A DNA stretch of 64,000 bases from Tubulanus polymorphus (lineage: Eukaryota; Animalia; Nemertea), in NCBI RefSeq assembly GCF_964204645.1, contig NC_134029.1, positions 14,440,950 through 14,504,949 of the forward strand, read 5' to 3'. The stretch's first letter is position 1; each line of letters starts with the position of its first letter. The notes beneath the pieces were generated by a model that was not told the DNA's origin, made no database searches, and worked only from the letters and a program-made list of their open reading frames with translations. Of this stretch, positions 32,311-63,379 are shown piece after piece. The position numbers and the translations under genes are program-made.

Positions 32311-32332
32311 TAATAAAAAATTTAGTATTAAA

Positions 32333-35105
32333 ATGGAAGCAAATACATTACATTATTAAATCATAAACAATTATGTGAAAATCATGATTATTGTAAATTA
32401 GTTTTACCAAATGAAAAGGATAAAATATTAGAATTCAAAAAATATGATTACAAAAATAAAGTTCCATTTTTTATATATGGAGATTTTGAATCATTAAATA
32501 AAGAATTAACTGATCAAGATAGAAAAGAAATATATTATAAAAGAAAGAAATTAAATTCTAATGAAAATGATTTTTCAGATGAACCACCAAAAACAAATAC
32601 AATTAAAAAGATTCATCAATCAGCTGCAGCTTTCGGGTTATATATAAAATCTGATTATCCAGAACTAATTAAAAGTGAATATTATCATTATAGAAATGAA
32701 AATGTTATCAATCATTTTTGTGACTTATTAATTGAATATGAAATAAGATTTAGTAAATTATTGAATACAAATATAGAAATTATAATGACAGAAGAAGATA
32801 AAGAAGAATTTGTGTTTTCAGGTAAATGTTATTATTGTGAAAAGATATTTCATTATAAAGATAAAAAAGTAAGAGACCATGATCATTTGAATGGAAAGTT
32901 TAGAGGCGCTGCACATGAGAATTGTAACTTACAAGCTAAGAAAATTAACTAATAAGTACCAGTTATATTTCATAATCTATCAGGATATGATGCACATTTA
33001 TTCATCAAACAGTTATGCCATAAAATAGAAGAAATTAATAATGAAATAGAAACATTAAATTCAAATAGATCAAAAGATAAAATACCAACTTATAAATTTA
33101 GAATGTTAGCTAAAACATCTGAGAATTATATATCATTCCAATTTGGGTGTTTAAGATTTATAGATTCATATAGATTTTTAAATAGTTCATTAGATAACTT
33201 ATCAAAATCATTAGTTGATGATGAATTAAAGATATTAAAAGAATATTACCCAAATAATGATGATTTTCAATTAATGAGATATAAAGGAGCAATTCCATAT
33301 TCATTTTATAAGAATCATAATGATTTTAACATAACTGAATTATTAAAAGAACAATTCTATGATGAATTAAAAAATGAATATGTTAAAGATGAAGTATATA
33401 ATAGAACATTGAATATTTGGAATCATTTCAAAATAGAAAATCATGGGCAATTAGTAGATTTATATCTAAAGTCAGATGTATTATTATTAACCGATATATT
33501 CGAAAGGTTTAGAGATGTAAACCTAAAATATTTTAACATTGATCCTTGTCATTGTTATTCATCACCAGGTTTAACATGGGATTGTGGTTTAAAATTTACA
33601 GATATAAGAATGGATTTGTTAACAAATATAGATCAATTACTATTATTTGAAAAATCTATAAGAGGAGGAGTTTCAGGTGTATTAGGCGATAGATATTTCA
33701 ATGTAAATGATAACCCTGGATATAAGTTATTATATATAGATGCAAATAATTTGTATGGTTGGGCAATGATGGAACCACAACCTTATGGAGTATTTGAATT
33801 AACTGAAGTTTTACAGAATGAAAATAATGATAAATTTGATTGGAAGAAAACAATTCTAGATATTGCAGATGATTCAGATACTGGTTACTTCTTTGTTGTA
33901 GATTTAGAATATCCTGAAGATAAAAAATTTAGATCTAGAAATCTAGCTTACTGTCCCGAACATAAAACTGTAACTCATGAAGAATTATCAAATTACCAAA
34001 AAAGAATTAAACCCGAAAATCATATTCATACAGAAAAGTTAATGGTAACTCAGGAAGATAAATATAATTATGTAGTACATTACAGAATGTTAAAGTTTTA
34101 TCTAAAACAAGGAATGATTCTAAAAAAAGTACATAGATATATTTCATTCAGCCAATCTAAGTGGTTACAAAAATATATAGATTTTAACACCAAACAGAGA
34201 ACTAAAGCTAAAACTGATTTCGAAAAAGATTTCTTCAAGTTAATGAATAATGCATTCTATGGTAAGACTTGTGAAAATATTAGAAATAGAAATGATATTG
34301 AGTTAGTTAGTAATGGCAAAAGGATAAGGCATTTACAATCATATCCTAAGTTTTTAGGTAACAGAATATTTGATGAAAATTTAGCTGCAGTTAAGATGAG
34401 AAGAACATCAATGAAATTTAATAAACCAATCTATGTTGGCGCTTCAGTTTTAGAATTATCAAAATTACTAATGTATGAATTCTATTATAATGTATTACAA
34501 CCACTTTTTGGAGAAAAGCATATAGAAATTCTATACTTTGATACAGATTCTTACATATAAAACAATAATAATAATAATAAACAATAATAATACAGATAAA
34601 AACTAATAACATAACAGATGATTTAAAAACATTAAAACATCATTTTGATTTTAGTAACTATCCTAAAGATCATGAATTGTTTAGCAATGATAATAAAAAA
34701 GTTCCTGGTAAATTCAAAGATGAATTAGGCGGTGAAGAAATGATTGAATTCATTGGTATTAGATCTAAAATGGATTCATATAAAACTAAAGAACATGAAG
34801 CTAAAAAGTTAAAAGGAATAACCAAAAGTGTAGTAGAAAAGAATATTCATTTCAAAGATTACATCAATTGTATATTCAATGAAGAAGTTAGAAAACATAA
34901 GATGAGATGTTTAAGATCTGAGTACCACGAAATGTTTATTGAAGAAATTGAAAAGATAAGTCTAAACCCATTTGATGATAAAAGATATATTTTAGATGAT
35001 GGAATTCATACAGTTTCTTATGGTTGCAATTTAGATGAATACTTAAAATTTAAAAGAGAAGAAACAAAAGAGAACGAGATAATGAAAAGAATTCTAACGT
35101 GTTAA
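32333..35105 (+). pseudogene. Polinton copy B pPolB with N-terminal deletion, one stop and a microsatellite insertion at about 34557-34595
   Basis: VIFHNLSGYDAH, YIDANNLYG, KLMNNAFYGK, YFDTDS, LNPFDDKRY; ATG 32333 joins at about 32350 to sequence matching copy A 29421. Confidence 0.93.
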
Positions 35106-35134
35106 TCAAATTTTAATAAAAATATGTTATTAAA

Positions 35135-35488
35135 ATGGAGAGTAAACAAACACACAGTGAGAACAACAAATCATTTCTAGATAGAATAAAAGATACTTCA
35201 AACGTCAAATCAGTAGATTATAAATTTAAGAAGTTAAAAGAATTAATAATCCATAAGAAATATCTAATTACAAATATTGATACAGTTACTAATAACTATG
35301 GAGATAAATTAGTTATACACTTAGAATATGAAGGATTAAAAGGAAATACATATAAATTCAGAACATATTTACCAGATAGATTTCATAGATTATCAAGTGA
35401 AGATTTTGAAGAATTATGTTCTGGAGATTTCTACTTCGTATACAAAGGTAAGAATGAAAAAGGGCATCATGAAATAGATTTCGAATAA
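35135..35488 (+). CDS. Polinton 117-aa protein downstream of pPolB, possibly OB-fold/SSB-like
   Basis: Intact in both copies (paralog 46044-46397); beta-rich pattern with YLPDRF. The function is inference only. Confidence 0.7.
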   Translation: MESKQTHSENNKSFLDRIKDTSNVKSVDYKFKKLKELIIHKKYLITNIDTVTNNYGDKLVIHLEYEGLKGNTYKFRTYLPDRFHRLSSEDFEELCSGDFYFVYKGKNEKGHHEIDFE

Positions 35489-35502
35489 AATATGTAAAAT
35501 AA

Positions 35503-36262
35503 ATGGTGGAATTAAAAGAATACAGAATATTTGTTGATTCTAGAAGGCTTACAGATTATAAATCACATAATTTACTAGTACAATTAGATAGAGAATTTAA
35601 GAATTGTGTAGATTTAAAATTAGTTAATATAAGTTTATGTAATTCTTTTTATAATATATCGGATAAAACTGTTGAACATAGAGCTTTTTTAATTTTTAAT
35701 AAAAATAAAAATGAATGGGCCTATATATATTTAAAACCGGGGTTATATAATTTAGATACATTGGCACAAGAAATTAATAGAAAAGCCTGGCACAAGTCAG
35801 GTAATAATTCCGGGTTTAATATTAGATTTTTAAAAAGTGAGAGTACTGACAAAATAAAGATAAGGTTGTCTGATATTGAAAAACATGCATTTATGGTAAA
35901 AAAAACCTATAGCTAAACTGTTGGGAATTCCTCCAGATAAATCTTTTACAAATATTGATGCTACACCAAACTTAATACCTTTTACACACTTTTATATCTA
36001 TTGCAATTTAATCGATCCTACAAAAACATTCGAAGCAACTAAAGATATAACTTGTAATTCTGGTTTACTTAACATTTTACCATTGAAGAATGTTAAAGAA
36101 TTTGGAACGCAAATAAATTATAATTTAACAGAATGTGATTTCAAACCATGCATTCCTCGTTTTAATAATTTTAGATTAGAAATTAGAAATCACAATGGAT
36201 ACTTAATTGATTTAAATAATTTCCCTGTAATTTATGAATTAGTTATAAGATGTAGAGAGTAA
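35503..36262 (+). pseudogene. Minor capsid protein (penton, single jelly roll), one frameshift
   Basis: About 250 aa: IFVDSR, SFYNIS, LKPGLYNLDTL, FYIYCNLI, LLNILPL, LEIRNHNGYLIDLNN, the pattern of Polinton/PLV pentons. Confidence 0.8.
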
Positions 36263-36602
36263 TTTTTTCACTATATTAATGAATATAACTGTTGGACAGA
36301 GTATATGTTTTGGGTTTGATTTAAACATGGTAAAGAAATGAGAATTAAACTAAATGATGTAATTACTGATATAAAAAGTAAATCATTTAACAATGCATCA
36401 ATGATTAATAAAGAAAATTATAATATAGAAAAAGTAATTGATTTAATTAAAACACCTTTAGAATATTATGAATTATTGATGATATTAAAAACATATTAAC
36501 CAAAATATATGATAATCATAAAAGTAGTAATGAAATAAATGTTGAAATAATCATAAATAAGTTAACTAAATATTTTGATGATAGTAATTTTTTGATAAAT
36601 AA

Positions 36603-36824
36603 ATGAGTGATAATAAGTGGATAATAACTGGATTATATAATGGAGCATTACTATCAGTTGGAACTGTTGGTTATTCAATGGTATTAAAAAAAGTATTTAA
36701 AATGGGAAGTGTTAATGTTGATAGATTTGATATCAATGATATTTTAAAATTAACATTAGCAGTTACTTTATCTAATTTAACTATTGATTATTTAGAAAAA
36801 CAAAAATATATTCCTCCCATATAA
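36603..36824 (+). CDS. Polinton 73-aa hydrophobic protein
   Basis: Intact ORF with TAAATG start; homolog at about 44697-44918 on the minus strand. Confidence 0.7.
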   Translation: MSDNKWIITGLYNGALLSVGTVGYSMVLKKVFKMGSVNVDRFDINDILKLTLAVTLSNLTIDYLEKQKYIPPI

Positions 36825-36848
36825 ATGCGTAATTTTTTTGCTAAATAA

Positions 36849-37271
36849 ATGGCTTCTGCAATTATAACTATTATAGGATCAGCAATTGTTAACGCTTTAG
36901 CATTTACTGGTGGCGGATATTTATTTAAGCATATTGATAAAAATAGTTCATTAGGAGAACAAAGAGGACATAACTTAGCATTAGAGAAATACAATAAAGC
37001 AGCAGAAGAATATAGAGAAAAACGACAAAACTATATGGATTATATTAACAAGGAATTATATGATCAGAAGATTTCACATAGAGATTTTCAATCAGTCGAT
37101 GATGCAATGAGTTTATATAACGCAGTAACCAATAAAGAAAAATTACATCTATACAAACCTAAATTATCAGATTATTATACCCCAAGTAAAGAACAACAGA
37201 AATATGAAATAATTTGGATTTTAGGTGGAACAGTTGTTGCTATATTTGTTGCTTATAAGTTTACTAATTAG
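36849..37271 (+). CDS. Polinton 140-aa protein with hydrophobic N- and C-termini and central coiled coil
   Basis: MASAIITIIGSAIVNALAFTGGGYLF...IIWILGGTVVAIFVAYKF; homolog at about 44253-44670 on the minus strand. Confidence 0.75.
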   Translation: MASAIITIIGSAIVNALAFTGGGYLFKHIDKNSSLGEQRGHNLALEKYNKAAEEYREKRQNYMDYINKELYDQKISHRDFQSVDDAMSLYNAVTNKEKLHLYKPKLSDYYTPSKEQQKYEIIWILGGTVVAIFVAYKFTN

Positions 37272-37291
37272 TAATTTTTTTTCTAAATAAG

Positions 37292-37725
37292 AGGAAGATA
37301 AAGTTGATAGTATTGATATTATTCCTCATGATATAAATAAGACTAAATTAAAAACATATTTAGAAAAACAAATATTAGAATTTGAAAGTGACTTAAAGAT
37401 AAAAAAGAAAAAATATTTAAAATCTAAAATTATATATTATTTGATTATAAGTGGTTCGGTTACAATTAGTTCTGTAATAACATTTCTAGCAATATTCAGC
37501 CCATTAACACCTTTAGCTATATCAATTGGTGTATTAGGATTAAGTTCAAGTGTATTAACTGGTATCAGTTCAAAATTAAATATAAAAAATAATAAAGAAA
37601 AAATTAAAACTAATATAAAAGAAATTAATAAATTAAAGAATACACTAGATTATATAATAAGTTTAAATGGTCATATAACAGTTGAAGAACAAGATAAATT
37701 ATTAAAAGAATTAATAAATTATTAA
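37292..37725 (+). pseudogene. Polinton two-TM protein; start codon lost in copy B (intact ATG at 44229 in copy A)
   Basis: IISGSVTISSVITFLAIFSPLTPLAISIGVLGLSSSVL; the copy A homolog is split by a HINE. Confidence 0.65.
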
Positions 37726-37741
37726 TTTTTTAATTATATAA

Positions 37742-40195
37742 ATGGTAGATAGTTTTCCAAAAGCTTTCCAATATAATAAATCAATTAAATATAATATTCC
37801 AGCAATAGATTTTAATAAAGATATTACATATAGAAATGAAGTTTTAAATTCATTAATTGATTTATATATTTATGTTACTGAAAATAATAATTTTCATGTA
37901 AAGATGGAAAATATATTTCATGTGTATACAATTAATTTCAAAAATTTAAATGAGGCAAAACAATGGTTATTAAAATCTAATATGAAGTATTGGCAGAACC
38001 AATTAAATTTTGCTGTTTATTGCGCAACAACAGGATGTGGAATTAGTTGGAATGATCATTTAAACAAACCAAGTTTACCATTGATGTTATCACTTTTTAG
38101 ATTTCATACTTATTTTCAAATAAAATTAATATTAGATGAATTAGAATATCCTTTACCAGGTTCAAAATATTTTAAAGAATTGAATAATAATATTAATTTT
38201 TCTAAGTTTTATAAAATATGTAATGAATTTAATATTAATTCGAATAAAGATTTTAGAGCAAAAATTGGAACAATGGGTGGATTAGGAATATTGTATACTA
38301 AAGAATTTGGAAAAATAATGACAAATTCAGATATAAGAACACTAAATTGGAATGAATTACCAAAATATTATAATAATATACAACAACAAAACAATAATGG
38401 TTGGGTTAATTTCATTTTAGAAAATAGTGAAGGTTTTACTTAAGCTGGTATACAAAGAATAAATCAATCTATTAGAACTTATTTGATATGTATTTTTGGT
38501 GCGCAAGTTGAAACAAGATCCCCAATAGTTGGAAATGATAACACTTCATTTGATTCGCAGAAACAATTCAAAGTATTATTTGAAGATTCCATTCATAATG
38601 ATGAAAATAGATCGATTCCAGAAAACATAGTAGGATATCAAAATTATTTAGATAAATCACATATTAGATTAAATTATTGTATAGGCCCTAATCTATTAAT
38701 TATTTCTAATGATTTAGTATTAAAGATGGGAAATATAATTGGTTATAATAATCTAATTAAAACTGCAACAATAAATAATTCATTTGGATTAAATGATATA
38801 AATAAAAAGATTATTACTGCTCCAAAATTAATGGAAGGTGAAAAAAATAAAAAAAATATTCAATCAACTGAAACTAAAACTAAGAATATTAAATTGGATA
38901 ATGATTCCAAAATAAAAGATTACAATACATCAGAAGATATAACAAGAAAATTAACTTAAATAAATTATTTGACGCCTGCGAAAAAATGTAGAATTTCTGG
39001 TATAAGCTAATGTGGAATTGCAAATTTGAAATCGAAGTTTTAAGAAATTTCGGGAATTATGAGATTTGGCGATTGGGTAGATGATACAGTCTTCGACTGG
39101 TCTAATAAAAAAAATTGTCAATTTGTGACTTCGATTCACTTTTGCCTCTAAGCTGGTCTGCAACTTCATTGCCTCCATGGTTGAAGAAAGAGCTCTTCTG
39201 ATGTCTGCTTCATCATGACTTTGAGCATATCGTGTAGCCAGCCAGCCCAGTCCTGGGGCCCGGTCTTGCTGTCACTTGATATCCTAGACTTGAGTCTGGG
39301 TTGAAGTAGACATTGTCATATAATTAACTTATTCATGTTATTCTGTATGAATTACCCGTGTGTCTTGTATTTTCTTATTTTAAAATTTGTAAATGTATTG
39401 ATTTTTGGAATTTTATCCCGGAATTTCAATGTAATAAGGATCAATAAAGTATTGAATTTAATTGTCACCTTATACACATGCCATCAGTGGACGCGGAGCC
39501 GTATATGACAGCTATGCTATAATAAATTGCTAATCTCATGAAACCTGCATACGTCTAATATCGAACATATTTTCTAAAACATTTGAATATTGAAATTATT
39601 TTACACGTTTTTATATAGACCGCTTGTAGCCGCCGATGAAATTCACGCCGGCCCAACTCAGATCGTAGATAACTTCGTCATTCCACTAGCAGCCCCATGT
39701 CAGGGTCTGACTTTTATATCAGACTTCCAAATCGTGTATACATCCGCCATTTAACCGAATGATCCGATTTACTTATCATTTCTATTTATCCCTGCCGCTC
39801 CTGATATAATCATACATCCTTTACTATTACAATACGTCTTCTCATGATATTCAATGCGATATAACATTTCGACGTTCAAATAGAGGTCATTATATAATCC
39901 CAGGGAGCCATTCTACATCTTTATCAATAATATTTTGCCATATAGCTTGTATGTGTACACATAAACCTGTGACGTTTTGCACATCGATTTACGGTTGTCG
40001 TTTGTAAAATGACGCTGAATGGTTAGCATTGTTTAGGTTTCATAATGGTAACGTTTTATAAGGCGTCAAAAAACTGATAATATTCAACATGAAATAATTA
40101 AACTAAATGATGATAATAAATCCCATGAAAATGCTAAATTAGCTTTAACTTGTATAGGAATTGTTATAGGAGGAATATTATATTTTAAATTTTAA
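37742..40195 (+). pseudogene. Polinton protein of about 440 aa, unknown function, C-terminal TM anchor; one stop and a HINE insertion
   Basis: WQNQLNFAVYCATTGCGISW and FRFHTYFQI motifs; resumes at about 40072 to LALTCIGIVIGGILYFKF-stop; homolog at 42591-41273 on the minus strand. Confidence 0.75.
38941..40071 (-). mobile_element. HINE (1.13 kb)
   Basis: Minus strand TTTTTGACGCC...GGCGTCAAATAAT...TTCTTGTT, no TSD; copy A shows the empty A/T-run site at about 41345. Confidence 0.85.
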
Positions 40196-40211
40196 TTTTT
40201 TTATTATGTAA

Positions 40212-41265
40212 ATGGAAGAAGGTGGAGGAGATTATGAAATGGAAAACATGGGAAATAATGATGATGCCAATACTAACAATGATGATTATGTGTCTGCTGA
40301 TACAAATATTGATAATGATAATGATACAACATATAATACTAATTTACCAGAAGTTGTTTCTGGTTCTAAAGCCCCATCAACAGATGAATTTGATAGAAGA
40401 ACTAGATCGAGAATACCTATTGAAAATGAAAATCCAGGTTTATTAAAGGAAAATTTTGAATATAATGAATATATTTATAATTTCAAACCTATATTTGAAA
40501 AATCTGGATATGATATAAATGCCAGAGGCGCCAGACTTTTAGTACAAGAATTAAAATCTTTAGATGGTGAATATTATTATCATTTGAAAGATGATTATTA
40601 TATTGATATCTCTTATAAAAAACAAAACAAAATATTAGCAGAATCAACTTTGCTTAAGTTAGACCTATCTAGAATTAAAAGAATAAGAAATAGTAATGAA
40701 ATAGAAGATGTAACACAAGAAGAAATTATTAAAAATGAAAGAGTGTTTAAACAAAGAATTAACGATTTATTTGAAACAATCGATAATAATTTAGAAACAG
40801 AAACAACTTCTGAACAGAATATAACTTCCAAAACTAGTAAACTTAAATCAAATAAAGTTCCAATTGAAAAACTTTTACCGAATGGTTTACTTGATGCAAC
40901 AGATCAAGAATTAGAAGATTTAGATATATTTTCTGATAAAGCAATTAGAGAAATTATTAGTATGAGAAATGAAGCTGATAAAATTGCGCATGATAAAAGT
41001 ATGAGATTTAAAAATAAGAACTTTAGAAGATGAATTATTTAAATCAAGAAAAGAATCGGAACAACTAAAATTAGATAGAGATAATAAAGTTATTGAAAAA
41101 ATTGAATTTAAAAAAAGAAATGCGTATTTAGAAAAAGAAAAAGATGATTTAGAATATAACATAGAATTTCAGAGAGAAAAAATGAAATTATTATTTAAAT
41201 CATATGATTATTGTATTAATAGATTAAAAGTTGTTGTTAAAGAGTTAATACTAATAAAAGTAATA
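40212..41265 (+). pseudogene. Polinton acidic/coiled-coil protein, frameshifted at about 41030 and truncated by the inversion
   Basis: 273-aa ORF with TAAATG start, followed by a charged helical continuation in another frame. Confidence 0.6.
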
Positions 41266-42920
41266 ATACTAATTATTTAGTATTTTCATGGGATTTATTA
41301 TCATTAATAGTTTTAATTATTTCATGTTGAATATTATCAGTTTTTATATTTTCTGATGTATTGTAATCTTTTATTTTAGAATCATTATCCAATTTGATAT
41401 TATTAGTTTTAGTTTCAGTTGATTGAATATGTTTTTTAATTTTTTCACCTTCCATTAATTTTGGAGCAGTAATAATCTTTTTATTTATGTAATTTAATCC
41501 TAATGAATTATTCATTGTTGCAGTCTTAATTAAATTATTATAACCAATTATATTTCCCATTTTTAATAATAAATCATTTGAAATAATTAATAAATTAGGG
41601 CCTATACAATAATTTAATCTTACATGAGATTTATCTAAATAATTTTGATATCTTACCATATTTTCTGGAATCGATCTATTTTTTACCTTATGAATGGAAT
41701 CTTCAAATATTTTGTGTATCAAATGATGTATTTAAATTTCCAATTATTGGGGATCTTGTTTCAACCTGTGATCCTAGAATACATATCAAATAAGTTCTAA
41801 TTGATTGATTTATTCTTTGTATACCTGATTCAGTAAAACTTTCACTATTATCTAAAGTAAACTAAACCCAACCATTATTGTTTTCTTGTTTTAAATTATC
41901 GTAGAATTTTGGTAATTGATTGAAATTTAATGTTTCTAAATCCAAAGTTGCTATTTTACCATAACCTAATTTATTATTATAGATATTATAAAAACTATTA
42001 GATGGTATGGGAAGTTTACAATATCCTGCAATCTTTTTAGGGCTAGGAAGTGATCTTATTGTTCCAATTTTTGTTCTAAAATCAGAATGATTTATATCTA
42101 TATTAAATTCATTACAAATTTTATAAAACTTTTATAAATTAATATTACTATCTAATTCTTTAAAATATCTAGATCCTGGCAAAGGAGTGTCTAATTCATT
42201 TAATATCAATCTTATTTGAAAATAAGTATGAAATCTAAATAAACTTTGAATTAATTTATATTTAGAATTATTTAAATGATCATTCCAACTAATTCCACAT
42301 CCTGTTGTTGCACAATAAACAGCAAAATTTAATTGGTTCTGCCAATATTTCATATTGATTTTAATAACCATTGTTTTTCATCTTTCAATTTTTTTAGATT
42401 AATTAAATATACATGAAATATATTTTCCATCTTTGCATTTAAATTATTAGTTTCAGTAACATAAATATCTTAATTAAGTAACAAATTTAAAACTTCATTT
42501 CTATATAAAATATCTTAATTAAAATCTATTGCTGGAATATTATATTTAATTGATTTATTATATTGGAAAGCTTTTGGAAAACTACCTACCATTTATAGAA
42601 TAAAAAAATTAATAATTTACTAATTCTTTTAATAATTTATCCTGTTCTTCAACTGTTATATTACCATTTAAACTTATTATATAATCTAATGTATTTTTTA
42701 ATCTATTAATTTCTTTTATATTAGATTTTATTTTTTCTTTATAACTTTTTATATTTAATTTTGAACTTATGCCGTTAATACACTTGAACTTAAACCTAAA
42801 GCTCCAATTGAGATAGCTAAAGGTGTTAATGGTGAGAATAATGCTAGAAATATTATTACAGAACTTATTGTAACTGAACCACTAATAATAAAATAATATA
42901 TAATCTTAGATTTTAAATAT

Positions 42921-44112
42921 TTTTTGACGCCTTATAAAACGTTACCATTATGAAACCTAAACAATGTTAACCATTCAGCGTCATTTTACAAACGACAGCC
43001 GTAAATCGATGTGCAAAACGTCACAGGTCTATGTGTACACAAATAAGCTATCTGGCAAAATATTATTGACATAGATGTAGAATGGCTTCCTGTGATTATA
43101 TAATGACCTATATTTGAACGTCGAAATGTTATATTGCATTGAATATCATTAGAAGACGTATTGTAATAGTAAAGGATGTATGATTATATCAGAAGCGGCA
43201 GGCATAAATAGAAATGATAAGTAAATCGGATTATTCGGTTAAATGGCGGATGTATACACGATTTGGAAGTCTGATATAAAAGTCAGACCCTGACGTGGGC
43301 ATGCCGGTGGAATGACGAAGCTATATACGATGTGTGTAGGGCCGGCGTGAATTTCATCAGCGGCTACAAGCGGTCAATATGAAAATGTGTAAACATATAA
43401 TTTCAATATTCAAACGTTTTAGAAAATATGTTTGATATTAGGAGTATGCAGGTTTCGTGAGATTAGCAATTTATAATAGCATAGCTATCATATACGGCTC
43501 CGCGTCCTCTGATGGCATGTGTATTAGGTGACAATTCAATTCAATTCTTTATTGATCCTTATTACATTGAAATTTCGGGATAAAATTCCCAAATTCAATA
43601 AATCAATAAAAATAATCAATACAACATACATGACACACGGGTAATTCATACAGAACAACATAAGCATGTTATTTTAAATGACAATGTCTACTTCAACCCA
43701 CCCAGACTCAAGACTCTAGGATATCGAGTGACACTGCCAAACCCGTGGCCCGGGCCCGGGGACCGGGCCGGCTGGCTAGGCCACACGATATGCTCGAAGT
43801 CATGATGAAGCAGACATCAGAAGAGCTCGTTCTTCAACGATGGAGGCAATGAAGTTGCAGACCAGCTTAGAGGCATAAGTAAATGAAGTCGGTCGCAAGT
43901 TCGCGATCAATTATTGAGAATTTTCAATAAAAAAATTTAAACCACTAGAGTCGAAGACCCGCTGTATCATCTACCCAATCGCCAAATCTCATCATTCCCC
44001 AAATTTCTTAAAACTTCGATTTCAAATTTGCAATTCCACATTAGCTTAGCCCAGAAATTATACATTTTTTTTCGCAGGCGTCAAATAATTTTCTAAAATT
44101 AATTTTCTTGTT
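42921..44112 (+). mobile_element. HINE (1.19 kb), same family as 38941-40071
   Basis: TTTTTGACGCCTTATAAAACG...GCAGGCGTCAAATAAT...TTCTTGTT; empty site in copy B at about 37405. Confidence 0.85.
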
Positions 44113-45269
44113 TCTTTTTATCTTTACGTCATTTTCAAATTCTAATATATGTTTTTCCAAATATAATTTTATTTTAGTTTTATTTATATCATGAGGAATA
44201 ATATCAATATTATCAACTTTATCAACCATTTATTTAGAAAAGAAATTACTAATTAGTAAATTTATAAGCAACAAATAATACAATAACTGTTCCACCTAAT
44301 TCCAAATTATTTCATATTTCTTCTGTTCACTACTTGGTGTATAATAATCTGATAATTTAGGTTTAAATAGATGTAATTTTTCACGATTTGTAACTGCGTT
44401 ATATAAACTCATAGCTTCATCGACTGATTGAAAATCTCTATGTGTAATTTTCTGATTATATAATTCTTTATTGATATAATCCATATAGTTTTGCCTCATT
44501 TCTCAATATTCTTCTGCTGCTTTATTATATTTCTCTAATGCTAAGTTATGTGTTCTTTGTTCTACTAATGAACTATTTTTATCAATATGCTTAAATAAAT
44601 AACCACCACCAGTAAATGCTAAAGCGTTAACAATTGTCGATCCTATAATAGTTATAATTGCAGATGCCATTTATTTAGCAAAAAAATTACGCATTTATAT
44701 AGGAGGAATATATTTTTGTTTTTCCAAATAATCAATTGTTAAATTAGATAAAGTAACTGCTAATGTTAATTTTAAAATATCATTGATATCAAATCTATCA
44801 ACATTAACACTTCCCATTTTAAATACTTTTTTTAATACCATTGAATAACCAACAGTTCCAACTGATAGTAATGCTCCATTATATAAACCAGTTATTATCC
44901 ACTTATTATCACTGATTTATTTCTCAAAAAATCACCTTCAAAATATTTAGTTATCTTATTTATGATTATTTCAACATTTCTTTCATTACTACTTTTATGA
45001 TTATCATATATTTCAGTTAATATGTTTTTAATATCATCGATAATTCCATCTTCATTTACTTCATAATATTCTAAGGGTGTTTTAATTTAACCAATTACTT
45101 TTTCTATATTATAATTTTCTTTATTAATCATTGATGCATTGTTAAATGATTTACTTTTTATATCAGTAATTACATCATTTAGTTTAATCCTCATTTCTTT
45201 ACCATGTTTAAAACCAAACATAAAACATATACTCGGTCCAACAGTTATATTCATTTATATATAAAGAAA

Positions 45270-46029
45270 ATTCCTCTTTACATCTTATAACTAATTCATA
45301 AATTACAGGAAAGTTATTCAAATCAATTAAATATCCATTATGATTTATAATTTCTAATCGAAAATTATTAAATTGAGGAATGCAAGGTTTATATTCGCAC
45401 TCGGCTAAATTATAGTTTATTTGAGTTCCAAATTCTTTAACATTCTTCAATGGTAAAATATTCAATAAACCAGAATTACAAATTGTATCTTTAGTTGCTT
45501 CAAATGTTTTTGTAGGATCAATTAAATTGCAATAAATATAAAAGTGTGTAAAAGGTATTAAGTTTGGTGTAGCATCAGCATTACGTATCCTTACATCTGG
45601 GTTAATTCCTAAAATTTTAACGAAAGGTTTTTTAACTAGAAATTGATGTTGATCTTCATTTCCTAATTTCATTCTTACTTTATCAGAGCTATCACTTTTT
45701 ATAAGTCTTAATCCAAATCCAGCAGATGCGCCCATTTTTGAGCGTGCTTTTTTATTAATTTCTTGAGCTAATGTTTCTAAATTATATAATCCAGGTTTAA
45801 GATAAAGATGAAACCATCTATTTTTATTTCTGTCATGAATTAAAAAGACTCTATGTTCAATAGATTTATTCGATATATTATGAAATGAGTTACATAAACT
45901 AATATTTACTAATTTTAAATCTACACAATTTTTAAATTCTCTATCTAATTGTACTAATAAATTATGTGATTTATAATTTGTAAGTCTTCTTGAATCAACA
46001 AATATTCTTTATTCTTTTAATTCTACCAT
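45270..46029 (-). pseudogene. Penton of copy A with an early nonsense codon
   Basis: Homolog of 35503-36262; TAC changed to TAA at codon 7. Confidence 0.78.
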
Positions 46030-46043
46030 TTATTTTACACATT

Positions 46044-46397
46044 TTATTCGAAATCTATTTCATGGTGCCCTTTTTCGTTCTTACCCTTATATATGAAATA
46101 GTAATCACCAGAACATAATTCTTCTAAATCTTCACTCGATAATCTATGAAATCTATCAGGTAAATATGTTCTGAATTTATATTTATTTCCTTTTAATCCT
46201 TCATATTCTAAGTGGATAACTAATTTATCTTCATATTTGTTAGAAACTGTATCAATATTTGTAATTAAATATTTCTTATGAATTGTTAATTCTGTTAAAT
46301 TCTTAAATTTATAATCTACTGATTTAGCATTTGTGATATCTTTTATTCTATCTAGAAATGATTTGTTGTTCTCAATGTGTGCTTGTTTACTCTCCAT
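46044..46397 (-). CDS. Polinton 117-aa protein, copy A
   Basis: Intact, highly similar to 35135-35488. Confidence 0.7.
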   Translation of the reverse strand: MESKQAHIENNKSFLDRIKDITNAKSVDYKFKNLTELTIHKKYLITNIDTVSNKYEDKLVIHLEYEGLKGNKYKFRTYLPDRFHRLSSEDLEELCSGDYYFIYKGKNEKGHHEIDFE

Positions 46398-46771
46398 TTT
46401 AATAACATATTTAGGGTTTTCTGTTTCTGCACAGAAAACCCTATTGAAATTCGCGTGATTATTAGGGTTTTCTGACTTTCGTCGAAAACCCTTTTGTAAT
46501 TCTGTTGATTGTTATTATTATTATTTACATATTTTCCACTTTTTTTCGCACATAAAATTCATCTTCTATCAGATTCGACAACTAACTGCTTCTAATTGAA
46601 ATGTAGAATTCTGATAGTAAAATAACACGCATTCGCTCCGCGTAGATTATACCTATGCACTCTCCGTCCTATTTTAAACTTAAAATTACTTACTGAAAGA
46701 TAACACCGGATGATAGTAGCAATCGCGACTCGCCCTGTGCGGTACTCCCACTAACGATAAAAACAGCGTCC

Positions 46772-48778: not shown

Positions 48779-48959
48779 CAGGGAAGTGTGATGAGATGGA
48801 ATACGGACGCTGTTGATGTTGACTGGTGTTCAGCTGGTAACACACACTCGATAAGCGTAGCTTACTGCTGTTGCGGTAACCTTTGATGTACGGGCTGAAT
48901 TGAATAGCCTACATCCGGCAATTAAAAGCGTCCGTATTCCATCTCATCACACTTCCCTG
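48779..48959. mobile_element. 181-bp MITE with 33-bp perfect TIRs and 7-bp TSD
   Basis: CAGGGAAGTGTGATGAGATGGAATACGGACGCT and its reverse complement, flanked by GTAATTC on both sides. Confidence 0.85.
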
Positions 48960-54500: not shown

Positions 54501-54965
54501 CATTTGGCGGTTGAAAGGATTAATATCATCAAGATAAATGCAATTTCTATTTCAATGTCGTCGAATTTATAGTTGTTAAAAAACTTCGAGCCTTCTGGTG
54601 GAACATAAATACTACCTAAGAGAACGTCTTTCTCAGTATTAAACACACATTTATCAATTTGGAGCCATAATATGTCCTTATTTTTGGTTTGTATTTCTTT
54701 GACATATTTACTATATATGCTTCGGTATATTATCCCAATTCCGCCAGATTTTCTAACGGCTAGATTATGTCTGTTCTTAAAAATAGCACTATATCCGCTA
54801 GGTAGTTGTTCTTTAACTAATTCCGAGTCGCACGCATCGAGTTTAGTTTCCGATAAACAAAAAAAGTCAAATTGTGTTATACATTCGCCTAAGTCAGGTG
54901 ATTTCATTTTGTTAAATAATCCACTAACATTTAATGCCGCAATCCGTATGTTGGTCTCGGCAACA
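51597..54965 (-). pseudogene. LINE ORF2 (AP endonuclease, RT, C-terminal Cys/His motif), two frameshifts
   Basis: LNVSGL, LSETK, SVIDY, NYRGITL, FVDFRKAFDSV, GVRQGESLSPLLF, LYADD, CTYC...EFHFLFEC. Confidence 0.92.
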
Positions 54966-55727: not shown

Positions 55728-57354
55728 TGTATCTGTAGTTGTCGTGTTGAAATATTAAGAGAGCACCGAAAACGCGTCTGCATTCGTTAACCACGTTGGA
55801 TTTTGTCCAATGTCGTATAGCGCCGCCGCGGTCGAAAATCGAACTAATCTGTCAAGTCGATAATTTTCTAAGTGAGAAGACGCCGCGTTCAGTTCGCGGT
55901 ACACTGTACGTACAATTTTTCGATACACTGCTGTTCAACAAATTTTTTTTGAAGTTGAAGTTCACAGCGCGCTATTCAGTTTTCAGAAGTAGAGGGCTAA
56001 AAATAACATCATTCGTAAGATCTCAGATTGAATATTTTCATCAGATTCAGAGCCCAGTTCATTGTATAAAATGTGTTATTTCATGTATTAGACAGTTACT
56101 TCTATTACGCTGACAGGAGTTTTTATGTCATAATTTGTTTACCTCATGTGTAACTCAATTATAGCAGAGTTGATAGTTTAATCATCAATTATTAATTTAT
56201 AAATAAATTAGTATTATTAATTTAATTATTGGATTGATTATTATTAAGAGATACGACATTATAAACATATATATAATGCACAGATATGGATGTTATATAT
56301 AATGCAAAGATATGGATGTTATAATGATAATGTATTTCTACTCGCATAGAAATGAGACTTAAGTTTTCCTGTTTGGATATTCTAAAATCTTATAAGTCCT
56401 TTGCCAAGGATATGAATGGTTTGTGATGATATCATGTTAACTAAATTCATTTGTTGGTTGAACGATTTCAATTAATATCGCAATATTTAGCATTCGTGAT
56501 ATAATTAATATGATAGAGATATGGCCATTTGTCTATTGTTTATGTTAGCAAAAGATTGCATTTGATATAGAAGGCTTTAAAATGTTTTGATGTATGGTTG
56601 AGATTTTCAAAATAAATGTTATGCTTACATGAGATAATTGGAACTAGATGTTTTATTTCATTTTTATCAAGTATCGATGGATGAGAAGTCTTTCGACGAT
56701 GTGCAGTTAGCCCATTAGAGTTTGCCTTAAAATACTTTACTCTCAGTCTAAGCTGAATTTAATTCATACCGCCGTTACAGTACTATAAAATTCACACAAA
56801 ATCTTTAGCGTCATTGGAATAGGACGTCCCCTGTTTCACATCCGGCAGGTGTTTTGACGGTGGGTAAGTTTAATAAGGTGCACCAAATCTATTAAAACGA
56901 TCGCTATTTTAAAATCAAATCATCCCGAAGAAAATGGGGATTTGAACCTATCGGATATATACTGGTACTCGGCGTCTTTCCACTTAACAAAACATCGTCA
57001 ATAACATTAGTTCTTATTATTGCTAAGCGGCGCTACCGGTACTGTCGATCGGACATTAGAAACTTTCTACCTTTTGCCAATAGAATCACAAATAAACGAA
57101 CACGGCCCGCCATGATTTCACACTAATTACCACCAAAAACCGTCCGACTACTATCATCTGAAGCGGGGTGTCCAGCGGGCGCAACGGAAAAGCCGCCAAT
57201 GATATAATTTCAACCAGTAATTTAACACCCGTTCTTTGGATAAATGGAAAACAAAATTACGGTGACAAAAACAGACACCACACAAAAATGAAGAGACAAC
57301 AAAATAAGGGGGCACCTCCATATTCACAATTCACATGCCAAACCTACGATCTTA

Positions 57355-57770
57355 ACACACAGTCCCAGTACCGTACACTCACTCTCACTCACAGTACACG
57401 CTTACACTCACACTAAATTATTAGACACTCTCATTCTCACTCGTACTCAAACTACACACTCAGTCTCACCTACGAGCAATTATCTAGTTTAGATAATTGC
57501 TCGTAGCTCTCACAGTACACTCACTCTCACAGTACCGTACACGCTTACAGTCACTGACACTCACATTGCACTCTCACTCAAACACTCACAGTACACACTC
57601 TCACTCACCGTACACGCTCACAGTCACTCACAGTCTCACTCTCACTCAAACACTGTCACTCACTGACACTCACAGTACACACCCACTCTCACTCTCACTC
57701 ACCGTACACACTCACTCTCTCACACTCACAGTACAAAGTACACAGTACACTGTACACAGTACACTCACTC
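57355..57770. repeat. CA/CT-rich low-complexity repeat
   Basis: Runs of (CACT)n and CACAGTACA. Confidence 0.85.
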
Positions 57771-57799
57771 ATCTTTTATCTGAATCTGTTCAACATTTT

Positions 57800-58410
57800 T
57801 TGAGGTGTAGTCGTAGAGCTGCAGAGCTGTAGAGTTGTCTGTACATGTACCACGTTCTATATATATATTTTTTTTCAGTTGTTGAGGTGTCGAGGTGTAG
57901 AGGTGTAGAGTTGTCTGTACCAAAACCACATTCTCTCTATATCTTTGTCAGTTGTTGAGGTGTCGAGGTGTAGAGTTGTCTGTACCAAAACCACATTCTC
58001 TCTATATCTCTGTCAGTTGTTGAGGTGTCGAGGTGTAGAGCTGTAGAGTTGTCTGTACCAAAGCCACATTCTCTCTATATCTTTGTCAGTTGTTGAGGTG
58101 TCGAGGTGTAGAGTTGTCTGTACCAAAACCACATTCTCTCTATATCTCTGTCAGTTGTTGAGGTGTCGAGGTGTAGAGTTGTCTGTACCAAAACCACATT
58201 CTCTCTATATCTTTGTCAGTTGTTGAGGTGTCGAGGTGTAGAGTTGTCTGTACCAAAACCACATTCTCTCTATATCTCTGTCAGTTGTTGAGGTGTCGAG
58301 GTGTAGAGCTGTAGAGTTGTCTGTACCAAAGCCACATTCTCTCTATAGCTTTGTCAGTTGTTGAGGTGTAGAACTGTAGAGTTGTCAGTCATAAAATCCA
58401 CGTTCTCTCT
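57800..58410. repeat. Minisatellite with 65/73-bp units, about 9 copies
   Basis: GTTGTTGAGGTGTCGAGGTGTAGAG(CTGTAGAG)TTGTCTGTACCAAAACCACATTCTCTCTATATCT(T/C)TGTCA. Confidence 0.9.
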
Positions 58411-60923
58411 TTATCATCATGTGTAGGCTATGTCGCACCGCCATTTATCCACCAGTCCCTTTTGGATTGCTAAGTATCGCCAGGTACCATCTATAGACAA
58501 TTTACGGGAGCTACCACCCGCTATAGTCCCCTATTCTTAAATCGCACCCATTTTTTACATATTACATCACTTACAACGATAAACATCCGTCGCCGACTGA
58601 AAAATTCACAAAAACTTCCGCATTGAGAGCGCCACCGCACCAATTCAAATTGGATCGGAAACCCTCCAGCGATGCACTCTATGATCATTAGAACCTGTCT
58701 TTGCTGACTGGGAATAAGATATTTCTCAGCGCGAAGGGGGCGGGGCGCAGCGTCACCAGGTCCCGCTCCGCGAGGAAGCTAGATTTTCAAAGAAATGAGT
58801 GCACGCGACGGCCGTGACCACTTGTTAGTGACGTCATCAAGAATGATGGCTCCGAGGATCGCCACATCACAGGTTACTGTGAATAAATGGGATTCGACCA
58901 TTCAAAAGTTCAAAATGTACTTTCTTGTTTTGTAAAACAAGTTTATTCATGTCGTTATATAAAGCATTTTGTTTGAAACATTCTTTAATAATGTTTGTTG
59001 AGTTTAAAGCCAATTGTCGTTGTGTAATTCGATACTGGTCACTGACATCAAAGTTTTAGTTTCTGTTCACATGTTTCGACTTATAAATATCCAACTTGTA
59101 TGTTCTATCATTTAATACAGGCCATGTGATTAATTGCGTATCACTCCATTAGTTTAAAAAAAGAGCACATATTTCGATATTGTTAAATAATTAACAACAT
59201 TTTTTTCTGTCACACGTTGATTTTTACCCATCACTTATAAAATTCAAATGTACGTGATGTATTCCGTAAGCTATGTAAGCTTGTTCTGAAAAATACACTA
59301 TGAATTTTCAATTTGTACTGACCATAATAGTTTATTTTTCGTAAATAAAATTTATATTTTAATTAAATAATTTCAAAATCTTTTCTATGCCCTCTGCGAC
59401 AGAAAGTTACTAAGGACTATTACATATTCAGATGTACGTTGATAATTGATTTCAATCCTCCATTCAAATAATTATATGAACATTATTTCGGAAGATGCAG
59501 GTGGCGCACAATCATAATACATACAACTCATCAAGCTGACGAGTCGTTTCCGTAACCTATGTTACAGACGGGTAACCAATCTACTCGACTCCACAGACAA
59601 CTAAACGACCCGAGTAACCCCCAATTTGACCATAACTATAAATTATGATATGTTAAACCGCATTGGTGTGACTTGACACGTCAAATGCGTATCCCGTATT
59701 GATATATTTCTATTATCCACTTTTCAAACTATGAATAGCACGCCTGCTCAGAAAACCCGTTGTCGCTGCTTTGCAGCTATATTCATTATTATTTTTTTTC
59801 CCTTTTCCACACAGTTTTTGTTTAAAGTGTAAAGGCTTCCTTACCTTACCGCTGTCGCCGATACAATCCGTATGATATCCTTCAGCTCACTTCAATCTCC
59901 AGATACTGCATGGGAATTTTGATAAATCCACGTTATAAAGGCACTGTCGAGCCGTAAACATCGGAAATTTGGCTCCGTTCAATTAGTAGCCATGTTGTAT
60001 TTTCTTTCCGAAATTTCTCTCTTCTTTATGAGGAAGAGCTATCGAATTATTCCCTCTCTTCTCCACAATCAATTTCAAAGTCAATTTTACGAATTTATTG
60101 CTGAGCGGGTCCGAGCACAGGGGCTCGTATCAGAGTTGTAGGTAATGTAAAAACGATAATCTGTTAATCCAATGTATATAGTATATATAAAATAACAAGG
60201 GGGCTAACGACGCTCACAAACTCCTCAACTTCAGTCGCTTACTTTTTCGTTATTTTTCATCTGATTTTGATAATCCAGGCATGATATGAAAGCTAATACC
60301 TTCCTGCTTCTAACGAAACTAATCCCGTTAATTTCCGATGAATAGTTCGTGAATTATATGTCTTTGAACGCGAAATTAGGGCCGAAATCGCCTGGACCGA
60401 AAATGCTATGACGCCGGTTTTTGCCGATTTCGAAATTTAAAACGTTGATCACTACAGAATTTGTAATCCATAAAAGACAAAATCAACATCAGCCGGAAAC
60501 CCAGACCAGATCAATTCATAATTTATTGATTGAATCTACACTACAATATATGTATCTATTCTAAATCATAGTACGTTCTTATCTGTAAATTCACTCAATC
60601 TATTGACTCAGCAGGTGCTTAAGATGAGTTCTTAATAGGACAGATTCATTTTTAAGCATGGTGATAATACAGTATCATGATGTTTGAATGCCAAAATAAA
60701 TGCCTGGTCAAATAAATTAATATTTGTGATTGTACGTCCGCGTATGTTCGGTTTCAAAGCTGAATCATATTTGACGTTTACACAGCATATTAGGTTCGAA
60801 TCTGTCAATGCATTTTATTCTATGTATCGATATTTCAATTTACTACAATTCCCATCTTTCTGAATGGCTTTGCAGAAAACCCGTCATCGCTGCTTGGCAG
60901 CTATATTTTTTATCAAAATTGAA

Positions 60924-61253
60924 TTAACATGTAATAATTCTTTTCATAATCTCATTCTCTTTTGTTTCTTCTCTTTTGAATTTTAAGTATTCATCTAAGT
61001 TGCAACCATAAGCAACTGTATGAATTCCATCATCTATAATATATCTTTTATCATCGAAAGGATTTAAACTTATCTTCTCTATCTCTTCAATAAACATTTC
61101 ATGATCTTCAGATCTTAAACATTTCATCTTATGTTTTCTAACTTCTTCATTGAATATACAATTGATGTAATCTTCGAAATGAATGTTTTTTTTCTACTAT
61201 ACTTTTGGTAATTCCTTTTAACTTTTTAGCTTCATGAGTTTTAGTTTTATATG
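60924..61253 (-). pseudogene. C-terminal part of copy A pPolB, continuing from 31805
   Basis: Resumes at SYKTK, the codon region where 28887-31805 stops; LNPFDDKRY; TSD TATATG at 61248-61253. Confidence 0.92.
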
Positions 61254-61759
61254 AGTAATAGGGATAATGGGCTTTCATACCAAAGGTCGAAAGTTCGAGC
61301 TCATAAAAAATGAAAAATATGAAAATAATAACAATTTCTATTTGAATTAGTAGCGAAACTCATATAAAATGAAAAATAATTCTCGCACACTCGAATTTAT
61401 TTTTCATTTTATTTGAGTTTCACTCCTAATTCAAATAGAAATTATTATTATTTTCATATTATTCATTTTTTACTCACTAGCCCTTTCAACCTTTGATATG
61501 AAAGCCCATTATCCCTATTACTCTTAAAATATTAATATACATGAATAAAATATATATGAATAACATATAAATTGATAGATTATTCAATATAAAAGTGTGA
61601 GTAAAGTGTAAGCTCTTATAGAATAGATATATAGATATATTTATAACATTATTTCAATATTCATATTTGTATGAGTTAGATTTTTAAACATTAAAAGTGT
61701 TAGTAAAGTGTGATTGAAATAATACATGATATAAATCATTGAACTTCTAAAATCAATTT
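61254..61759 (+). repeat. Right terminal inverted repeat of copy B, now in direct orientation because of the inversion; 269-bp hairpin at 61254-61522
   Basis: Near-identical to 31806-32310. Confidence 0.88.
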
Positions 61760-61781
61760 AGTAAAAAAATATGTATAATAA

Positions 61782-62459
61782 ATGGAACCAGAACAACCAC
61801 AAACTATCAATATTACAAATAACACTGGCGTCATAAATATATACTACAAGAAGTGTTCTAAATGTGAATTAGATAAATTAGCTATAACAGAATTCAGTAA
61901 GCGTAAGATTAGCAAAGATGGTTTTCAATATTGTTGTAAAACTTGTTTTAAACTATATACCAAACAATACCGAGAAGATAATATAGAACATTATAATTAT
62001 TATATGGCAGAATATATGAGAGAAAGATATCAAACAGATCTTAATTTTAGATTGAAACAATGCTTAAGATCTAGATTAACACAATTATTCAACAAAGAAA
62101 CACATTCAGAAACACTATCTAATTTATTGGGTTGTACAGATGAATTTTTCATATCATGGATAATATATCAATTCGATGATAAAATGAATATAGATAATTA
62201 TGGTGAATACTTTCATATTGATCATGTGTTACCAATATCTAAATTTAACATGAATATGGAATACAATAAAAAACTTATTTGGAATTGGAAGAATTTAAGA
62301 CCTTTAGAAAAGAAGGAAAACATAATTAAATCTAATAAACTAGATTTACAGTTATATTTAGAACAGTTAACAAAGGCAAAGAAATTTATTGATCAATGGA
62401 ACAATGATCCAAATAATGAACAATACGTTGAGGAATTTGATATCAAGGATCCGAAATGA
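61782..62459 (+). CDS. HNH-type endonuclease with N-terminal CxxC...CxxC zinc finger, resembling NCLDV families
   Basis: KKCSKC...CKTC; LLGCT..F; FHIDHVLPISKF...WNWKNLRPL...NIIKSN; intact 225 aa. Confidence 0.8.
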   Translation: MEPEQPQTINITNNTGVINIYYKKCSKCELDKLAITEFSKRKISKDGFQYCCKTCFKLYTKQYREDNIEHYNYYMAEYMRERYQTDLNFRLKQCLRSRLTQLFNKETHSETLSNLLGCTDEFFISWIIYQFDDKMNIDNYGEYFHIDHVLPISKFNMNMEYNKKLIWNWKNLRPLEKKENIIKSNKLDLQLYLEQLTKAKKFIDQWNNDPNNEQYVEEFDIKDPK

Positions 62460-62770
62460 CTTATCTGATAGTTATAATTACTGCTCCTAATAGATAAACA
62501 AAAGTAGTGAGATATCAAATAGAATTCAAATAAAATATATTAAAAAAACAATAACTTCAACTAGCCATTATTTCTATTTTAATTTTTGATATTTTCTTTT
62601 ACAATTCTTTTCAAAAGAGAATACTTTATATTTTGAATAGATTCAAATAGAAATTCTTTAAATTCAAATAGCTAGTACCAGTAGTCAATACTAGAATTCT
62701 TTAACTTTAACTATCTAGTATCATTTTATAATACTTATAATATTTTTCTTATTAAATTTCTCCAATATAA

Positions 62771-63379
62771 ATGTCAAAGAAATCGAGTAAGAATAGTATT
62801 GATATTGAAAAAACATTAGATGATTTGGGTATTAGTGATAATAAGGATCCAGTTGTTTCTAATTCTATTCAAGTTAATTGTAAAATAGATTATGAATACT
62901 ATTTATATTGTAAGCATCATCTAGAACTATTGATTGCCGGTGGAAAAACTAAGGAGTTTTTAAATAGAATCATTACTTTTCAAGAACTAGACTCTATGAA
63001 ACCAGATAAAGTAATAAAATATTTTAAGATTTATGAAGAAGCTAGATTAGCTAGAATAAATGATTCTATTTCAGATGGTATTGTCAAATGTTATTCTAAG
63101 TTATGTAACCGGTTAATACCAATTGATGATGAAAATAAATTATATAGTGATTTGAAAAATGACTATTTAGTTATGACTGAATTACAAAAATGGGTTGGTT
63201 ATGCTTCATTCCAATTAGGATCGGTTATGACATTAATTTCTACTGGTGTCATAACATTTTCGAATATTAAGCCTATGGAATATAAATCAGGTAAGAACGA
63301 AACAGATGACGCTGTACTACAACCAAACAGTGAAACAGAAAATGAATCAGAACAAAAATTAACTAAAATAAATGAGTGA
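62771..63379 (+). CDS. Polinton 202-aa hypothetical protein with a hydrophobic segment near the C-terminus
   Basis: Intact ORF with TAAATG start. Confidence 0.7.
   Translation: MSKKSSKNSIDIEKTLDDLGISDNKDPVVSNSIQVNCKIDYEYYLYCKHHLELLIAGGKTKEFLNRIITFQELDSMKPDKVIKYFKIYEEARLARINDSISDGIVKCYSKLCNRLIPIDDENKLYSDLKNDYLVMTELQKWVGYASFQLGSVMTLISTGVITFSNIKPMEYKSGKNETDDAVLQPNSETENESEQKLTKINE

Follow-up and report, generated by a model that had tools for sequence, protein, structure and literature searches.

Which polymerase transcribes the genes of an animal Polinton is a question raised by a 64,000-nucleotide stretch of the genome of the nemertean Tubulanus polymorphus (contig NC_134029.1, positions 14,440,950 to 14,504,949; hereafter the window), where an AT-rich element starts most of its genes at TAAATG, a sequence that overlaps the start codon in poxvirus promoters. 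The element is a Polinton by membership, as a pPolB gene, a retroviral-type integrase, terminal inverted repeats and a 6-bp target duplication were all found. For animal Polintons, dependence on iridoviruses as helpers was raised as a possibility in PMC8097293, the accessible text of which describes no such promoters (statements on cited papers refer throughout to the accessible portions of their text). A preliminary description of the window proposed that the TAAATG starts are late promoters of poxvirus type and that the element is a virophage-like parasite of a cytoplasmic pox-like virus.

TAAATG at the gene starts of one Polinton lineage

Since copies A and B of the element are approximately 90% identical to each other, each gene was counted once, which gave 13 distinct gene starts in the window. 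TAAATG was found at 10 of these and TAAAATG at two (32333 and 35135, as previously described), only the integrase presenting neither, compared with 25 of the 396 non-start sense ATGs of the element that followed TAA (Fisher P = 1.4e-9); in 100,000 draws from the 30 nt upstream of the starts, the count never exceeded 7 of 13. Twelve of the 13 TAAATG positions in the preliminary description were exact, and the remaining one lies at 42592 instead of 42591. Its claim that the genes start at TAAATG holds for most of them, with exceptions that it had left unlisted: the integrase (63742), the ~100-amino-acid (aa) gene of copy B, which starts at TTAATG (36279), and two genes devoid of an ATG, the 145-aa gene in copy B and the 73-aa gene in copy A. 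Both in the window (63742) and in the related locus L006 (6216), the integrase alone lacks the motif. The intergenic gaps, described as short, measured 14, 24 and 16 bp. Stop-start coupling was rejected as a source of the motif, the TAA of TAAATG not being the stop codon of the upstream gene at the measured junctions (gaps of 14–24 bp or overlap).

The sequences further upstream were also as described, with a T-run and spacer before four of the motifs (from 36588, 36833, 37726 and 40196) and an A-run before the pPolB, 117-aa, penton-like and HNH-like genes; the corresponding signals are called here T-class and A-class. At least five T at positions –13 to –8 upstream of TAAAT were observed in 6 of 7 T-class genes and at none of the 25 non-start TAAATG sites. 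The pattern AATTTTT-N6-9-TAAATG had six matches in the window, all at starts (four distinct genes), against 0.24 expected, this pattern being derived from the same starts, so that the five-T comparison is the fairer test. The A-class pattern had eight matches at up to two mismatches against 1.16 expected, five of them at starts. Both the enrichment over internal ATGs and the T-run spacing, on which the preliminary description had made its reading depend, thus lie above background, and the TAAATG gene-start feature is real and lineage-specific.

In the relatives L004, L005, L006 and L008 (73–87% pPolB identity, different gene order), TAAATG was found at 10 of 11 starts, the sole exception being the integrase; this count excludes two open reading frames (ORFs) that begin at an internal Met of a cut polymerase (the first one in L006, the long one in L007), together with the short L007 ORF at the true start (TAAATG) and the HNH start of L008 (identical to that of L006). 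These four loci group with the window element in a pPolB tree of 71 sequences and 468 columns (FastTree support 1.0), the deep nodes of which are weak. Among 30 further loci of Polinton type whose longest ORF measured at least 1,100 aa, a pool from which L002 and L086 had been set aside, 16 of 267 first ATGs followed TAA and A occupied position –3 in 64%. L002 (9,034 bp, 38% GC), which is distant in the tree and has a different gene set, presented TAAATG at 7 of 7 starts (P = 7e-10) and is likely an independent case; a scan with its polymerase found no close kin. L086 presented it at 5 of 13 (P = 3e-3), which is not significant over the 64 loci tested. L002 also carries a protease-like N-terminus fused to an rve integrase and a chromodomain.

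Moreover, L027, L015 and L055 share the gene module of the window at 25–37% identity, yet carry other motifs abutting the ATG. By eye, a TTAAAAA..TCT..TAAAATG-type motif abuts the ATG in L027, L040, L046, L063, L033, L086, L088 and L091, and a TATATA(A)ATG-type motif, reminiscent of the late initiator of African swine fever virus (ASFV), does so in L015 and L055. The polymerases of the sister clade (P0009, L010) carry intein/LAGLIDADG domains, and the capsid-like protein of L027 had no meaningful PDB sequence match.

The preliminary description had cautioned that AT-rich DNA and A-rich Kozak contexts inflate such motifs. Neither accounts for the motif, because TAA precedes so few first ATGs in the other Polintons and the loci with a related module use other motifs; at –3, where the other Polintons carry the Kozak A, 19 of the 21 classed starts have T instead, contrary to a Kozak preference. 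This conflict bears on a broader alternative, that the motif serves the host RNA polymerase II as an A-rich Kozak context, as the poly(A) signal of the upstream gene or as a TATA-like box. Nuclear integration of the element would suit such a role, as would the 6 of 13 window starts whose first A is also the last letter of AATAAA and the 3 of 13 at which TATAAA ends in the same way. Nevertheless, the poly(A)-signal version fails because TAAATG heads genes without a co-oriented upstream gene (61782 and both divergent pairs of L002) and because 4 of the 10 TAAATG starts lack AATAAA. The TATA-box version is opposed by TATAWAW occurring at no fixed position in –25 to –60; given the established spacing of RNA polymerase II, transcription from a TATA box adjoining the ATG would begin within the gene. 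The dense sense-strand AATAAA would also cut RNA polymerase II transcripts, a weak argument. Service to the host polymerase is, on balance, quite improbable.

Two signal classes and a candidate pox-like helper

The classed starts, drawn from the window genes and the relatives, comprise 13 A-class and 8 T-class starts, assigned by gene after the motifs had been seen. T-class signals present AA at –18/–17 and a T-run at –16 to –10 from the ATG, whereas A-class signals present an A-run at –18 to –13, T at –12 and T-G-T at –10 to –8; TAA directly precedes the ATG in 19 of 21 starts, both classes pooled. The T-class heads the ~100-, 73-, 140-, 145-, 440-, 273- and 202-aa genes, which are membrane-type or function-unassigned, and the A-class heads the pPolB, 117-aa, penton-like, HNH-like and 129-aa genes.

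Vaccinia late promoters carry TAAAT(G) on the start codon and a conserved T, among other Ts, at the 10th base upstream of TAAAT (PMC11980589; also PMC5294985), whereas intermediate promoters carry TAAA without that T and an A/T-rich, A-preferring tract 15–19 nt upstream (PMC11980589). Both late features, TAAAT(G) on the start codon and a T-rich core with the 10th-base T, were found in the T-class. In the window, 6 of 7 T-class genes have the –10 T and 4 of 5 A-class genes lack it; at non-start sites it occurs in 10 of 25. By sequence, the T-class is a close match to the vaccinia late signature; the A-class, with TAAA and mostly without the –10 T, seems a looser match to the intermediate one, because its A-tract lies 10–15 nt upstream of TAAA, nearer than in vaccinia. 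A promoter-like reading of the motif is well supported by its lineage specificity, fixed spacing, two vaccinia-like classes and T at –3.

The TAAATG signals are probably poxvirus-type post-replicative promoters, and a pox-like helper infecting the same cell would supply the RNA polymerase that reads them in the cytoplasm. From the motifs, their classes, their restriction to a lineage and their match to poxviruses we infer promoter function, timing, poly(A) leaders and a helper, as follows. Each gene would have one compact promoter, with transcripts that start inside the AAA of TAAAT and acquire a poly(A) leader through slippage of the polymerase; this would create an A-rich start context and make up for the T at –3 in the DNA, by analogy with vaccinia (PMC6211774). 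The A-run genes (polymerase, penton-like, HNH-like, 117-aa and 129-aa) might fire first, in an intermediate-like manner, and the T-run genes of the membrane-type and function-unassigned block later, in a late-like manner, while the integrase, devoid of the motif, would be controlled differently. On the model of mavirus and Cafeteria roenbergensis virus (CroV), integrated copies would be expressed only after a helper had infected the cell.

A scan of viral contigs with TAATTTTTT-N6-8-TAAATGG, covering 8 of 64 parts, returned 120 loci, the DNA of 80 of which was obtained, and the 79 loci with at least three ORFs were ranked by TAAATG-start enrichment. The top locus, L186 (7 of 13 starts, one being the scan match itself; P = 4.6e-6), is a chordopoxvirus core region by Pfam (A8, P4a, A11, A12, A14, A15, A17), and its TAAATG starts have T at –10 in six of seven cases and an A-run in the seventh. 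The second-ranked locus belongs to a giant-virus bin of 18% GC (5 of 9; P = 1.9e-3 uncorrected). A scan of viral contigs with the A-class motif had a single match, on a tailed-phage contig and not at a listed gene start.

The giant-virus locus is among the points favoring another origin of the signals, namely that they are real cytoplasmic-type promoters for a non-poxvirus polymerase, supplied by another large DNA virus, a companion element or an unseen part of the element itself. The yeast linear plasmids pGKL, which encode their own pox-related polymerase, likewise use a TAAAN initiator and produce poly(A) leaders (PMC6211774), a precedent that also counts against a pox-like helper; relatives of poxviruses with an unreported promoter type exist, some of them basal branches from marine sediment (egovirus preprint), and the window element is incomplete. 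However, in an uncounted inspection by eye of the sequences upstream of the starts, no ATNTGA box of the pGKL kind was seen at a constant distance. The late genes of ASFV initiate at ATA/TATA, and the –10 T of the late class, like the division into A-run and T-run signals, follows vaccinia. In the 13.4 kb of L027 and the 11.8 kb of L015, which carry this module, pPolB is the only ORF long enough for a large RNA polymerase subunit. A non-poxvirus polymerase is comparatively unlikely. The preliminary description had noted the lack of an RNA polymerase in the window, and indeed none was found in the scanned frames of this incomplete element, which leaves such a lack unproven for the element as a whole; similarly, no pox polymerase subunit was found among the scanned frames of the window and relatives.

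Besides the assignment of classes after inspection and the displaced A-run, several points weigh against a pox-like helper. Two A-class starts adjoin the shared terminal repeat and are not independent, and the class tracks function imperfectly, the pPolB gene of L005 having a T-run start and the penton-like gene being A-class. The window holds an incomplete element, without major capsid or ATPase. No pox-derived gene was found in the 13 window element frames, nor in a rescan, at E ≤ 1, of 18 frames from the window and its relatives, and neither a transcript nor a helper sequence was seen. No RNA data set was listed that contains the element, a result silent on its expression. The helper proposed in the preliminary description is plausible, with mavirus and CroV as a protist precedent. 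AATAAA is not avoided in the genes of the clade (135 against 138.5 expected in 23 kb, one per 170 nt), whereas it is avoided in the frames of long interspersed nuclear elements (LINEs) of the window (4 against 9.6 expected, z = –2.6), which favors non-nuclear transcription only weakly, because Polintons without the motif likewise show no avoidance. A role of T-runs as early terminators was rejected: TTTTTNT is depleted in the clade genes (19 against 32.9 expected), but T5NV, T4 and A6 are depleted too, which indicates generic homopolymer avoidance.

The motifs might also have ceased to act as promoters, being a relic of a pox-dependent ancestor or the product of local copying between gene starts. 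In favor of this, every copy in the window is broken, the T-class signals are mutually similar and often follow the upstream stop codon, and the A-class signals are similar to the terminal-repeat end. On the other hand, relatives with intact polymerases of 1,336–1,365 aa and other gene orders keep the motifs, and their spacers differ. In the host copies, covered by ~700–1,100 reads at the signals of 36603 and 36849, no TAAATG position is among those listed as varying in at least 4% of reads, whereas four spacer positions and one T-run position are; this 0 of 12 is not significant (~0.25 by chance). A relic is highly improbable.

Under the pox-helper reading, the element would work like a virophage. 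It is tentatively suggested that the lineage may be an endogenous virophage of an undiscovered marine-invertebrate poxvirus, wired into the intermediate and late cascade of its helper, and that animal Polintons may carry helper-specific signatures (TAAATG in this lineage and, independently, in L002; elsewhere TCT...TAAAATG or TATATAATG) recording which large DNA virus each lineage parasitises.

Architecture and genes of the element

The background of the window is host DNA of 35–40% GC with a Gypsy element, LINEs and short repeats, in which two AT-rich blocks (20–26% GC; ~28.9–46.4 kb and 60.9–64 kb) are Polinton pieces, identified by pPolB (PF03175), the start of an rve integrase and a penton-like gene. 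A terminal repeat of ~507 bp beginning AGTAATAGGG is present on the plus strand at 31806..32312, as the left end of copy B, and at 61254..61761, as its right end, inverted relative to an intact element; the two are 96% identical. Both are flanked by the target-site duplication CATATA (31800..31805, plus; partner 61248–61253, minus), where an older pPolB gene, that of copy D, is split into a degraded 5′ part (28850..31805, plus, start approximate) and a 3′ end that continues from the duplication (60907..61253, minus). In the simplest history, copy B would have inserted into the polymerase gene of copy D, and a later inversion would have flipped everything from ~41260 onwards, explaining the orientation of the terminal repeats. 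The copy A of the preliminary description (41260..46415, minus; ~90% identical to copy B, from the 117-aa to the 440-aa gene, with many breaks) would then be the inverted remainder of copy D, from the pPolB 3′ end of which it is separated by a 14.5-kb host-repeat insertion with a LINE. DNA reads from a run with the same species label cover 30 of 30 bins, and 1141 reads with loose ends before 31806 confirmed the element end; this Polinton is therefore a many-copy integrated family.

The outer ~270 bp of each terminal repeat (31806–32074 and 61254–61522) form a long imperfect palindrome (hairpin z = –19.9), on the arms of which the vaccinia early-promoter consensus AAAANTGAAAA occurs at 31858 (plus), 32022 (minus) and 61306 (plus). 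Such a palindrome might serve as a terminal structure in replication or be akin to a poxvirus telomere.

The first gene of copy B is pPolB, in pieces (32333..35105, plus; PF03175, E = 3.8e-14), which has an A-class TAAAATG start at 32333 and is 82–87% identical to the intact relatives P0001–P0003; intact relative polymerases measure 1,319–1,365 aa. It is followed by the 117-aa gene (35135..35488, plus; 46397–46044, minus, in copy A), with an A-class TAAAATG and 62–65% identity to genes of L004 and L008, and by the penton-like minor capsid gene, in two frames (35503..36262, plus; A-class TAAATG; copy A start 46029). The homologue of the latter, P0265 (51%), matches Sputnik minor-capsid and DUF5901 clusters at 0.97, and a single-sequence fold of the window frame reached a predicted local distance difference test (pLDDT) value of 34.5. 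The penton-like assignment in the capsid module is supported via this homologue; no major capsid or packaging ATPase gene was found in the window, and a major-capsid-like gene and an A32 ATPase are present in the same-module loci L027 and L015.

The T-class block begins with the broken ~100-aa gene (36279..36590, plus), whose start is TTAATG in copy B and TAAATG in copy A (45254). It continues with a signal at 36586–36605 and the 73-aa gene at 36603–36824 (together 36586..36824, plus), homologues of which occur in L015 and L027, and with a signal at 36831–36851 and a 140-aa gene with hydrophobic ends (together 36831..37271, plus; copy A start 44670), 33–34% identical to genes of L027 and L015. 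A T-run also precedes the 145-aa two-helix membrane gene (37272..37725, plus; TAAATG in copy A at 44229), which is weakly SLATT-like (PF18142, E = 7e-4, below cut-off). Next come a T-class signal and the ~440-aa gene (together 37724..40190, plus; copy A start 42592), which encodes a C-terminal hydrophobic helix and is interrupted by a stop and by a ~1.1-kb insertion (about 38960–40075). The predicted structure of the ~440-aa protein (P0121) is mainly helical (pLDDT 77, predicted template-modelling score 0.75) and had no fold match in BFVD or PDB and no Atlas match, so that a capsid role was rejected and the model possibly represents a new fold with a C-terminal membrane anchor; scans of viral contigs found no locus of this family. 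Clear hydrophobic helices are present in the 140-, 145- and 440-aa proteins. The block closes with a signal at 40194–40214, a 273-aa coiled-coil gene and an 85-aa frame (40194..41259, plus), ending at the inversion breakpoint.

Inside the right terminal repeat, the first gene (61782–62459; with its A-class signal 61766..62459, plus) is one that we take to be HNH-like, partly from the appearance of its motif; HNH_4 was matched only at E = 0.14, and the gene is 43–55% identical to genes of L004, L006 and L008. It is followed by a 202-aa gene (62771..63379, plus) with TAAATG and a weak T-run, which is T8 in L006, by a broken 129-aa-type gene (63372..63584, plus) whose A-class TAAATG overlaps the upstream gene, and by the integrase start (63742..64000, plus), without TAAATG here or in L006, 72% identical to the L006 gene (PF00665, E = 6.5e-9).

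Among the host repeats, one of ~1.1 kb entered each Polinton copy by a separate insertion at an AT-rich site (38960–40075 and 42925–44090) and also occurs at 22218–22522. The 14.5-kb insertion in the older copy (46420–60900) contains a LINE (51597–55727, minus) and a 65-bp satellite (57747–58396); homologues of the window LINE are only 34–44% identical, the named ones including a mussel, a pseudoscorpion and symbiont bins of bivalves. A degraded Gypsy long terminal repeat retrotransposon lies at 15088–20331 (minus), 31-bp tandem arrays at 14096–14302 and 20485–20911, and 145–154-bp repeats at 1687–2177 and 10104–11681, each with CCACCAGGGGGCG, presumably a CTCF-like word judging from its appearance.

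Relation to known systems

A literature search, with most subscription papers outside its reach, found no description of pox-type promoters in an animal Polinton and no paper on poxviruses of marine invertebrates. Neither promoter nor helper is mentioned in the accessible text of PMC8502044, and promoters are not mentioned in that of the preprints 10.64898/2026.10.13.758929 and 10.1101/2024.03.23.586382. Barth et al. 2024 (PMC11296320) reported Polinton-like viruses from the occlusion bodies of entomopoxviruses, and the accessible main text of that paper mentions no promoter, motif or transcription, nor its supplement archive a promoter; the preliminary description, which placed the novelty only in lineage and host, had therefore understated it. 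The 25-bp signals make the helper question directly testable. If they work, the element would point to a pox-like virus in an invertebrate host, promoter mimicry of the mavirus type would extend from protists to animals, and the helpers of other Polinton lineages could be predicted from sequence alone.

The window element resembles other animal Polintons/Mavericks (adintoviruses; Polintoviricetes) in its pPolB, rve integrase, penton-like gene and many host copies, in long terminal repeats beginning AGTA and a 6-bp target duplication, and in the gene module that it shares with L027 and L015, and differs in its own pPolB clade, ~23% GC and TAAATG starts absent from most relatives. The entomopoxvirus-associated Polinton-like viruses, compared by description only, are similarly proposed as poxvirus hyperparasites, but come from the occlusion bodies of viruses of Lepidoptera, encode a protease, and carry either a tyrosine recombinase or no integrase (PMC11296320). 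Compared with vaccinia, the signals share TAAATG on the start codon, with a T-run and –10 T in one class, and TAAA after an A-rich tract, without the –10 T, in the other; they differ in sitting on a Polinton, in having predicted activity only, in an A-tract ~4–5 nt closer, and in the recurrent T-G-T of the A-class, which is absent from the accessible vaccinia descriptions (PMC11980589, PMC5294985). The plasmids pGKL1/2 are also AT-rich pPolB elements with a TAAAN initiator and short gaps, but they have a polymerase of their own and an upstream ATNTGA box and do not integrate (PMC6211774). Finally, mavirus and the endogenous mavirus-like elements (EMALEs) of Cafeteria are integrated elements with rve and pPolB whose promoter motif matches the late promoter of the helper (PMC10945749); they differ in their protist host, mimivirus-type helper and experimentally shown reactivation. 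EMALE types carry different promoter motifs (PMC10945749), a difference paralleled by the other ATG-abutting motifs of L027, L015 and L055.

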